Shown: positions 17,381 to 19,365, counted from the first letter of the stretch. The stretch is 27,799 nucleotides of DNA from Candidatus Shapirobacteria bacterium (GCA_041663805.1 JBAYMA010000001.1:1-27799); one strand, 5' to 3'. The notes: generated by a model not told the origin, from the sequence alone. A program made the numbers and translations.

Positions 17381-19365
17381 TGGTCACTCTTGACTCTATT
17401 AATCTCAAAAATACTTCTCCTGAAAAACTTGGTGAACTTTTGATGGATGCTAAAAAGGCTTACTACCTCGATAGTAAACCAATTATGGATGATCACACCT
17501 ACGATACCCTTGAAGATATTTTACGTAAAATTAACCCTCATCATCGGATTTTTACTAAAGTCGGTAATTCCAATTTCAACACCGGTTTTGATAAAAAAAA
17601 ACATGCTATGGTTATGGGTTCTCAAAATAAAGTCAGTATTTATAATGATTTAGTTCATTATTTTGAATTAAAAGAAAAACTTATTTCAAAAAATAATTCT
17701 TCCCCCTTTCTTCAAGGGGGGATTAGAGGGGGGTTTTGTATTCAACCAAAATGTGATGGCATTTCTTTAGAAATTATTTACCAGAATGGTGAACTTGTTG
17801 AAGCCGTTACCCGAGGCGATGGTGAGATAGGGGATGTCATTACTCAAAATGTGGTTAAGATGAAAAACACAGTCCTGAGTTTATCGAATAATTTCACTGG
17901 TTCTGTCCGTTGTGAAATTGTGATGTTAGAAACAGATTTTCAAAAACTAAATCAGATTCCTGATGAAAAATATTCTAATTCCAGAAATGCAACTTCCGGC
18001 ATTTCTCAGCGTCTCGATAGTAAATACTCTGAACTCTGCAGTCTTTATACTGTTGATATTTTTTCATCTACTCAAAATTTTGAAACCGAAGTCGAAAAAA
18101 TAAATTATTTAAAAAAACACAAATTTACCACCGTCGAAAATCTTCACTGTTCTAATTTTGAAGAAATCGAAAATATTTATCAAAAATATTTAACTAAAAA
18201 AAGAAAAGATTATCCTTTTGAAATTGATGGTTTAGTTATCAAAATAAATAATTTAAAATTACAACATCAACTCGGTTCCAAAAACAATCGCCCCAAAGGT
18301 CAAGTCGCCTACAAATTTCCCGCCCGTTCCAGTCAAACTCGAATTATCAATATCAATTGGCAAGTCGGACCGATGGGGACAATTACTCCAGTGGCTCAAG
18401 TCGACCCTATCGAAATTTCTGGAGCTGTAATTACTTTTGCTTCCTTAGCTAACTACGATTTAATTAAAGAAAAAAATATTAATATTGACGATATTATTGA
18501 AATCCAAAGAAGAGGGGATGTTATCCCTCATATTGAAAAAGTTATTACCAAAGTTACCGATGGTCATATTATTGCCCCTGAATTTTGTCCTTCCTGTAAA
18601 ACCAAATTAATTATTGACAATAAATTTTTACGTTGTCCCAATATTAAAAATTGTCCCGATCAAATTTTAGGTTCTCTCAAATTATTTTGCGACACTTTAG
18701 AAATTAAAGGCATTTCTGATAAAACTATTGCTAAACTTTATCAAGTAAAACTTCTTCGTCTTCCTGGAGATTTTTATAATCTTAAAGTTGTTGATTTTGA
18801 AAATCTTTTTGGTCTTGGTAAAAAATCAGGTACTAATATCATTAATGAAATCCAAAATAAAAGAAAACTTTCTCTAAAACAAATTTTAGATGCCTCAATT
18901 ATTCCAAATTTCAGTTCTCAAAGAATTATTCAAATTATTAATGCGGGATTTGATACCTCAGATAAAATCTTAAACATCACTATTGACCAATTAAAATCCT
19001 TAGATGGAATTCAAATCACTTTAGCTCAAAAAATCTATCAAGGAATTCAAGATCGAAAAGATTTTATCGAATCAATATTATTACAAACAACTCTCAAAAA
19101 AACTAATTCATCTAATAAACTTAAAAACCTCACTTTTGCTATCACTGGTGCTCTTAATCAACCTCGAAAAGAAATTGAAGATCAAATAATTTCTCTCGGT
19201 GGTAAGATTGCCAGTTCGGTTACATCAAATACTTCTTATTTAATTACTAACCTACCTGCCGGCAGGCACGGTGAAACAAACTCTGATTCTAATAAATTTA
19301 CTTCTGCCAAAAAGTTAGGTATAAAAATCATTTCTGAAGAAGAGTTTGCTAAATTAGCAATCTAA
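17380..19365 (+). CDS. ligA: NAD-dependent DNA ligase
   Basis: KCDG (KxDG), TRGDG, EIDGLVIK, AYKF, VGPMG.ITP, RRGDVIP, C-x2-C-x12-C-x5-C zinc finger, HhH repeats, C-terminal BRCT. Confidence 0.97.
   Translation: MVTLDSINLKNTSPEKLGELLMDAKKAYYLDSKPIMDDHTYDTLEDILRKINPHHRIFTKVGNSNFNTGFDKKKHAMVMGSQNKVSIYNDLVHYFELKEKLISKNNSSPFLQGGIRGGFCIQPKCDGISLEIIYQNGELVEAVTRGDGEIGDVITQNVVKMKNTVLSLSNNFTGSVRCEIVMLETDFQKLNQIPDEKYSNSRNATSGISQRLDSKYSELCSLYTVDIFSSTQNFETEVEKINYLKKHKFTTVENLHCSNFEEIENIYQKYLTKKRKDYPFEIDGLVIKINNLKLQHQLGSKNNRPKGQVAYKFPARSSQTRIININWQVGPMGTITPVAQVDPIEISGAVITFASLANYDLIKEKNINIDDIIEIQRRGDVIPHIEKVITKVTDGHIIAPEFCPSCKTKLIIDNKFLRCPNIKNCPDQILGSLKLFCDTLEIKGISDKTIAKLYQVKLLRLPGDFYNLKVVDFENLFGLGKKSGTNIINEIQNKRKLSLKQILDASIIPNFSSQRIIQIINAGFDTSDKILNITIDQLKSLDGIQITLAQKIYQGIQDRKDFIESILLQTTLKKTNSSNKLKNLTFAITGALNQPRKEIEDQIISLGGKIASSVTSNTSYLITNLPAGRHGETNSDSNKFTSAKKLGIKIISEEEFAKLAI
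17701..17733 (+). repeat. 33-bp GC-rich hairpin element in frame in ligA (SPFLQGGIRGG)
   Basis: ccccctt/aaggggg stem with 5-nt loop; 20 of 33 bases G/C; lies six codons before the catalytic Lys. Confidence 0.75.
19251..19271 (+). repeat. 21-bp palindromic element in frame in the ligA BRCT domain (LPAGRHG)
   Basis: cctacctgccggcaggcacgg with perfect 12-bp palindrome cctgccggcagg (19255-19266); 16 of 21 bases G/C; deleting it keeps the frame. Confidence 0.8.

Follow-up and report, generated by a model that had tools for sequence, protein, structure and literature searches.

Why should the gene of an essential replication enzyme, in a bacterium of 30% G+C, carry a short GC-rich block just before the codon of its catalytic lysine? 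The question is raised by ligA, which encodes the NAD-dependent DNA ligase, in a stretch of 27,799 nucleotides (GCA_041663805.1, JBAYMA010000001.1:1-27799; here called the window, with positions counted from its first letter). The host is a Candidatus Shapirobacteria bacterium, an AT-rich, ultra-small member of the Patescibacteria or candidate phyla radiation (CPR), with a 570-kb genome in 74 contigs that is 85% complete. The combined evidence indicates that the block is very probably a solo, minimal copy of a dispersed non-coding Shapirobacteria repeat carrying an intrastrand triplex motif, tolerated in a loop of LigA.

An in-frame GC-rich insert beside the catalytic lysine of LigA

The features on which the question rests are the following.

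17380..19365, + strand: ligA, NAD-dependent DNA ligase, host gene of the insert; intact open reading frame (ORF) of 661 aa
17701..17733, + strand: insert encoding S108-G118 (SPFLQGGIRGG); absent in L002 (the nearest relative) and most orthologues, matched by the family hidden Markov model (HMM)
17749..17751, + strand: codon of the catalytic lysine K124 (KCDG motif I), from sequence reading; the column is invariant

The insert reads TCCCCCTTTCTTCAAGGGGGGATTAGAGGGGGG and has 20 G or C among its 33 bp (61%, against 30% genome-wide). Its length, composition, peptide and position ahead of K124 were thus as described by the first-pass annotation, a reading of the window sequence alone, and it lies within an in-frame ORF. 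Five residues separate the end of the insert (G118) from K124. From M79 of the MGS motif to K124, inclusive, there are 46 residues here, 33 in insert-free orthologues of the same genus and 37 in E. coli LigA, and the same annotation's figures of 46 and about 37 were recovered. The protein has the complete set of domains of an NAD-dependent ligase (adenylation, OB, zinc-finger, HhH and BRCT; Pfam) and matches solved LigA structures (PDB chains) down to E = 3e-65, and the catalytic columns K124, D126 and G127 are invariant across 48 orthologues.

The insert is missing from most relatives and is genuine DNA

To place the insert among relatives, we sampled ligA from 24 genomes of the same genus and from 56 further public loci, which yielded 52 distinct full-length proteins. 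The insert was absent in L002, the nearest relative (79% identity), and in 38 of the 52 distinct orthologues. The native loop without it is short and reads KKIPNKTD-FVVQPKCDG. Compared to L002 and most others, the ligA of the window has 13 extra codons, namely the 11-codon block and two codons upstream of it; the alignment gap of about 11 aa that had been expected was found at this place, as a gap of 13. Contigs assembled from a landfill metagenome in a separate study, and others from a second groundwater run, spanned the insert with 0 differences, and two or three independent metagenome assemblies contain it. These independent contigs exclude an assembly artefact.

A dispersed repeat family with a mirror-symmetric third arm

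An exact or 3-mismatch search of the window recovered the ligA copy alone, and shuffled windows gave none. The family was first exposed by a listing of GC-rich islands and a motif regular expression, and its census combined nhmmer with a pattern search. A profile HMM of 56 positions, built from 25 copies with the ligA copy left out, gave 36 matches at E ≤ 0.02 in the 570-kb genome. The ligA copy was among them (17700-17737, E = 0.001, 17.9 bits, model positions 4-55 of 56). The genome-wide search proposed in the first-pass annotation therefore returned about 35 further copies, some intergenic and others within the reading frame of at least seven other genes.

The copies share one order of parts: an arm rich in C comes first, followed by its G-rich complement, an inner hairpin that varies, a G-rich tail in mirror image to the G-arm, and TTT. 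The landmarks TCAA, AAGGG and GGGTTT are invariant, with the AA and G columns fixed in the alignment. In an alignment of 31 copies, CG<->UA substitutions compensate each other both in the first stem and in the inner hairpin, whose length varies. The ligA copy and the copy at C60:414-450 are minimal forms without the inner hairpin. The ligA copy is parsed below, beside a full-length copy from the same window.

17701..17709, + strand: pyrimidine arm (Y), TCCCCCTTT; class II triplex parse with 9 triplets, 1 mismatch
17710-17713, + strand: loop 1, CTTC; triplex parse
17714..17722, + strand: purine arm (R), AAGGGGGGA, Watson-Crick partner of the Y arm; triplex parse
17723-17726, + strand: loop 2, TTAG; triplex parse
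17727..17735, + strand: third arm (reverse-Hoogsteen type), AGGGGGGTT, mirror of the R arm; triplex parse
1423..1470, + strand (as the ligA copy): full-length intergenic copy of the GGGAGGG/GGGTGGG subfamily, with inner hairpin; nhmmer E = 3.7e-10; 9 triplets, 1 mismatch

The third arm runs 2 nt beyond the end given to the insert in the first-pass annotation. The second G-rich block mirrors the G-arm; it repeats it neither directly nor in inverted form. Among parsed copies from this and related genomes, 52 of 58 obeyed the mirror rule at six or more of seven positions, compared to 15 of 58 under a direct reading. About 12 arm variants occur, every one with a matching mirror tail; the arm/tail pairs include GGGGAGA/AGAGGGG, GGGAAGG/GGAAGGG, GGGAGGA/AGG[AT]GGG, GGGAGGG/GGGTGGG, GGGGAGC/TGAGGGG and GGGGGGA/AGGGGGG.

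The triplets counted as valid follow the antiparallel purine motif (G*GC, A*AT, T*AT), and the invariant AA and TTT join the triple stem. For the ligA copy this gives 9 triplets, 1 mismatch and two loops of 4 nt each, and 21 of the 36 copies form at least eight valid triplets. The arm order of a class II purine-motif triplex (Y at the 5' side, then R, then the reverse-Hoogsteen arm at the 3' side) is found in the ligA copy and in the family alignment. The ITxF limits, as given by Holder et al. 2015 (PMC4666352), are stems of 6-15 nt, at most one mismatch in stems longer than 7, and loops of 1-6 nt; the ligA copy falls within them, and the second loop of full-length copies (12-25 nt) exceeds the loop limit. 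The regularity of the insert thus lies in a three-arm design rather than a simple hairpin, and the arm rules suggest that the strand may fold, as a hairpin or a triplex, when single-stranded, including in vivo. A G-quadruplex was also considered as the basis of the design, the arms being runs of G, and was set aside, as the GGGGAG/GAGGGG subfamily has just two runs of four G and as the A and T positions obey a mirror rule that a quadruplex does not need.

An ordinary lineage-specific expansion of the loop, by slippage or drift, which looks like the repeat through its composition alone, would be in keeping with the variable length of this loop in bacteria (methionine to lysine, 37 residues in E. 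coli against 33 in the insert-free orthologues of the genus). It does not account for a profile match over the whole length, the shared TCAA, AAGGG and GGGTTT landmarks and the retention of all three arms, nor for 61% G+C in a 30% genome and near-identical copies in the ligA of other genera (L083, L058), and we consider it highly improbable. The first-pass idea of a dispersed repeat kept in frame within an essential gene is instead supported, both by the family copies and by the gap in relatives.

In-frame copies are probably read through

Further copies lie in frame in at least seven other genes, encoding a TrxB-like reductase, an FkbM methyltransferase, two glycosyltransferases, MiaA, TsaE and a C39-like peptidase. 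In six of these genes the Pfam domain spans the inserted copy, and in the C39-like peptidase gene the copy is upstream of the domain. These copies occur in both orientations and in several frames.

The AlphaFold model of LigA (48-sequence alignment) had a mean predicted local distance difference test score (pLDDT) of 87.7. The segments with pLDDT <50 were residues 60-63, 111-116, which belong to the insert, and 627-632, which belong to a second insert (LPAGRHG, described below), with no others. The insert falls in a coil at residues 103-118, between the helix 88-102 and the strand 119-125 that bears K124. A surface loop had been anticipated here, and a low-confidence coil between that helix and the K124 strand was obtained. 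The simplest reading of the model is that the insert would be read through as a floppy loop.

Removal of the insert before the protein is made or finished, by a mini-intron, translational bypass or an intein-like process, has nothing positive in its favor. The insert is 33 nt long, in frame and stop-free, and far below the length of an intein. Rfam, introns included, gave no family at E ≤ 1 for the three repeat-bearing loci searched, and at gathering scores it gave one tRNA and nothing else in the whole window, ligA included. Removal is therefore barely conceivable, and plain read-through is favored since the in-frame copies elsewhere occupy both orientations and several frames.

Similar elements recur at the same ligA codon

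The same minimal element is present in the same frame of this loop in L033, L083 and L058, and in decayed form in L080. A sister subfamily, LPLLVKGGDRGG, occupies the loop in another frame in L015, L018, L038, L054 and L059, and is decayed in L079. An unrelated palindrome, AACGTTGATATGCGAAGCATATCTTACGTT (peptide SAAAGNVDMRSIS), is found at the same loop before QPKCDG in L005, L006, L010, L047, L063, L081 and L085.

We mapped these elements on a LigA tree for which the insert columns had been left out of the alignment. The carriers were maximally scattered, with four changes for the four Gb-type rows and five changes for the five Ga-type rows; carriers of the AACGTTGATATGCGAAGCATATCTTACGTT palindrome were scattered as well (four changes for five rows). 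Grouping the carriers was rejected by the approximately unbiased (AU) test, both for the window with L033 (p = 1e-4) and for all four (p = 0.002). Because the carriers are not a clade, gain, loss or patch transfer must recur. Simple vertical descent of the insert is unlikely, as the sister genome G002, from which L002 comes, has no family copy (0 matches to the repeat pattern) and no DUF559 gene, a nuclease gene considered below.

A single old insertion, without repeated fresh ones, could still underlie this pattern, either through vertical inheritance with many precise losses or through a short recombination patch passed between lineages. In agreement with this, the window and L033 share the element and an A-rich 5' flank, GAAAAACTTnTTTCAAAAAAT, with a peak of DNA identity (88%) over the insert only, and every copy at this first LigA site is the minimal form. 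Sample-sharing relatives from groundwater, landfill and soil (runs X1-X4, window 17673-17743) have an empty ligA codon or a Ga-type element, and since several related Shapirobacteria share samples, donors and recipients of a patch coexist. Against it stand the scattered carriers and the rejected grouping, and the presence of two frames and subfamilies (SPFLQGG versus LPLLVKGG) together with an unrelated palindrome in one loop. Vertical loss would in addition require G002 to have been purged cleanly of all copies, in-frame ones included. We regard one old insertion as possible but rather doubtful. At the ligA codon itself, either fresh insertion or short-patch transfer would fit the data.

Other loops of LigA are also hit in relatives, which points to permissive sites rather than to targeting. 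Residues ~197, 230 and 575 in relatives (L003-L018, L025) are further insertion hot spots with triplex-type copies, and the same hot spots hold a palindrome family of the AGAGACGTTTTGCAAAACGTCTCT type that reads VETHHDASL or RDVLQNVS according to frame.

The recurrence could also be taken to mean that the element is kept because it is useful in ligA, either as DNA or RNA, through pausing or control of ligase expression, or as a glycine-rich flap close to the site of adenylation. It ends five residues from K124, similar elements recur at this exact loop in several lineages, and the orientation of the G-rich strand is non-random genome-wide. On the other hand, the nearest and most other orthologues do without the insert, the copies in L079 and L080 are degenerate, indicating decay, the pLDDT below 50 suggests no fixed structure, and the same elements occur in other LigA surface loops and in unrelated enzymes. 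Usefulness is accordingly an improbable explanation, and we retain that of a tolerated repeat copy.

DUF559 nuclease genes are bracketed by inverted copies

The host genome has two DUF559 genes (C3:22720-23154 and C5:2227-2643), and both lie between inverted copies of the repeat with the tails outward.

C3:22683-22737, - strand, and C3:23152-23206, + strand: repeats of the C3 cassette, GGGAGGG subfamily; HMM
C5:2228-2276, - strand, and C5:2662-2708, + strand: repeats of the C5 cassette, GGGGAGA subfamily; HMM

Of 31 DUF559 loci in the genus, 22 had HMM matches on both sides, always with the left copy on the - strand and the right copy on the + strand, and five had a match on one side. At 12 DUF559 loci poor in HMM matches, variant copies were visible by eye in most. 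Co-occurrence was assessed across 132 genomes of the order by a Fisher test on pattern matches, a test that kinship inflates: 57 genomes with DUF559 had at least five repeats and 9 had fewer, compared to 6 and 60 genomes, respectively, among those without DUF559. These results make DUF559 a candidate partner enzyme of the repeats, and the cassette arrangement suggests that it may mobilize them. Our literature search found no paper tying DUF559 to such repeats.

Several side observations concern these cassettes. The DUF559 ORF of the C5 cassette runs into the flanking repeat (C5:2227-2276; also L115:1462-1511), and the element supplies the 15 C-terminal residues of the product, LPFIKGRCQFIDRRV. 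Two relatives have a DUF559 cassette with its flanking repeats directly upstream of ligA (G005:C2:6843-7157 and G007:C63:1695-2012; loci L004 and L020/L125); in the window, a Fic-like gene (16238-17365) stands upstream of ligA in place of such a cassette. Tail-out inverted pairs of repeats, 9-70 nt apart, are present in the host genome (C3:21981-22108) and in relatives (G043:C1 at 144821/144927, 146705/146773 and 221331/221406; G127:C1 at 79331/79402). Such closely spaced pairs look like cassettes without the DUF559 gene and parallel the paired copies of TMECO, the E. coli repeat compared below.

Repeat orientation is biased and GC skew is uniform

Of the 36 copies of the repeat, 31 had their G-rich strand on the strand that is C-rich locally (p = 4e-5), and the exceptions were mostly partners in cassettes or inverted pairs. 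Single large contigs of relatives showed one predominant orientation (51 of 52 copies in G009:C1, 30 of 35 in G043:C1 and 15 of 18 in G127:C1), uniform across hundreds of kb, with an exception at 181-206 kb of G009:C3. GC skew was negative throughout the samples taken on one strand of G127:C1 (998 kb, a near-complete single-contig relative, eight 20-kb samples), in those from G009:C3 (210 kb) and over the whole window (1-27799). No replichore sign change was seen in the sampled large contigs of relatives, and there is thus no replichore flip by which orientation could be tied to replication. The uniform negative skew may come from unidirectional replication or from another genome-wide strand asymmetry.

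A proposed route to the ligA insert and the evidence weighing on it

We propose that a repeat copy landed, or was copied, into the stretch coding for the loop just before ligA motif I. It would persist because the frame was kept and no stop lies in the frame used; the 11 added residues, rich in Gly and Pro, would extend a disordered loop at the surface and leave the ligase working. Recurrent use of the loop would reflect sites that tolerate inserts. RAYT, an IS200/IS605-type Y1 transposase, spreads REPs, and a RAYT gene with its flanking REPs is called a REPtron; the DUF559 nuclease (Vsr-like, PD-(D/E)xK) encoded between inverted copies could nick or spread the present repeats in a comparable way. 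More tentatively, the repeats and the bracketed DUF559 gene might form one selfish system, in which the nuclease recognizes the folded strand of its own subfamily and drives replication-coupled copying; such a system is conceivable, although we would not count it as likely. Copying of this type, if true, would explain the uniform strand orientation.

Several points weigh against reading the insert as a mobile triplex-motif repeat served by DUF559. The RNA fold of the ligA copy was no better than that of shuffles (z = -0.5), and a stable mRNA hairpin was dropped as a defining property for this reason; of the "GC-rich hairpin" in the first-pass annotation, the composition stands and the hairpin is only partly apt, given this fold and the three-arm design. 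Holder et al. 2015 (PMC4666352) state that RNA does not form purine-motif triplexes; if so, a triplex in this element would have to form in single-stranded DNA and not in the mRNA, which agrees with the unremarkable RNA fold. The case for a triplex is built from sequence rules and from in-vitro work on another sequence, from E. coli, and the arms, at 7-9 nt, are short. That the insert is translated is an assumption. No target-site duplication or consistent target motif was found by eye in the flanks, nor any transposition event, so that mobility is inferred from distribution only. As an explanation of the A-rich flank in common with L033, fresh insertion does no better than patch transfer or old ancestry. 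Finally, the association of DUF559 with the repeats is correlative and the genomes compared are related and thus non-independent samples, and six genomes have repeats with no DUF559 detected, all but one of them being 72-92% complete.

A second LigA insert and other small palindromes

The first-pass annotation had counted two unrelated insertions in this gene. The second is real and has no sequence kinship with the first.

19251..19271, + strand (about): unrelated in-frame insert LPAGRHG, palindrome CCTGCCGGCAGG, in the BRCT domain; in this LigA only

One further genomic copy of this palindrome was seen at C3:3959, beside a tRNA-like sequence. Other GC-rich palindromes, TCCGCCAG(C/T)TGGCGGA, lie beside or inside tRNA-like sequences at C13:2867-2910, C30:5874-5920, C30:6340-6379 and C36:184-252, and may be another small family of repeats with tRNA genes as its targets.

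Implications

A design of the BoxC/PIT type is met here in a CPR bacterium with a genome of 0.6-0.7 Mb, inside an essential replication enzyme and five residues from its catalytic lysine. Inserts of this kind make up much of the length variation among orthologues in Patescibacteria and can mislead alignments, domain boundaries and structure-based annotation. The system is tractable: a small nuclease gene stands between the cassette copies, repeat subfamilies go with particular nuclease paralogues, and the genus contains carriers and non-carriers. Were the selfish system with DUF559 true, the same permissive codons of ligA and other essential genes would be colonized repeatedly, BoxC/PIT repeats, which have stood as orphans since the 1990s, would gain their missing enzyme, and a new, transposase-free remodelling of essential proteins would operate in tiny CPR genomes. 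Our literature search found no paper on in-frame palindromic repeats in CPR. What the present analysis adds is the ligA case near an active site, the triplet parse of a minimal copy, the homoplasy test and the link to DUF559 within the genus.

Comparison with known repeat systems

Three known systems bear on this family. REP/RAYT is alike in having a small enzyme gene between inverted copies of a repeat that is also scattered as solo copies genome-wide, in a repeat that folds, or in the present case may fold, in single-stranded DNA, and in an orientation bias over long chromosome stretches. It differs in the flanked gene, which here encodes a DUF559 (Vsr-like PD-(D/E)xK) nuclease, and the host genome (85% complete) gave no match to the Y1/RAYT transposase (PF01797).

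Rickettsia palindromic elements (RPE) are described by Ogata et al. 2000, as relayed by the MITE review PMC10969869, as palindromes of 100-150 bp in families RPE-1 to RPE-10. The likeness to them that the first-pass annotation had proposed holds for behavior: both are short dispersed repeats found in frame in coding genes, housekeeping genes among them, with the ORF kept; RPEs are read through as a surface peptide that a loop tolerates, and the present copies probably are as well. By description, the present element differs in its size of 33-60 bp, its mirror third arm, its link to DUF559 and its unrelated sequence; given this size and the different architecture, homology with RPE is not expected.

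To our knowledge, BoxC/PIT/triplex-motif repeats have gone about three decades without a function, a mobilizing enzyme or reported coding copies. The closest design is that of this E. coli repeat, BoxC/PIT/TMECO, for which Holder et al. 2015 (PMC4666352) set out a "class II intrastrand triplex". Elements of this type are known from E. coli as well as from other Proteobacteria and from Cyanobacteria (Hoyne & Maher 2000; Holder et al. 2015, PMC4666352). The latter paper describes TMECO as always intergenic, patchy in copy number between strains, without strand bias and of no known function or enzyme; its abstract reports characterization by circular dichroism, nuclear magnetic resonance and in vivo footprinting, and links the motif to genomic instability. 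Triplex formation by the isolated strand is reported for this E. coli sequence only.

Both families place a pyrimidine arm, a loop, a purine arm, a second loop and a mirror purine/T arm on one strand, with G/C-rich arms of 7-9 nt. Both have tens of copies per genome, are very patchy among close relatives and form tail-out inverted pairs, and neither has a known transposase. They differ in sequence, as the TMECO pattern CCCTCNCCC N3-6 GGGNGAGGG N3 GGGNGAGGG fits no copy here, where the arms are CCCCC/GGGGGG, CCCTCC/GGGAGGG, CTCCCC/GGGGAG and similar; because that pattern is not fitted, we file the present repeats as the same design but a different family. Most copies here have an inner hairpin of 11-27 nt as second loop, the short loop of the ligA copy being TMECO-like. 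Further differences are that about one fifth of the copies (at least eight) lie in frame in genes, that orientation is strongly biased and that the host is an AT-rich CPR bacterium. The description that suits the element best is that of BoxC/PIT triplex-motif repeats in a CPR variant, with RPE-like behavior once in genes.

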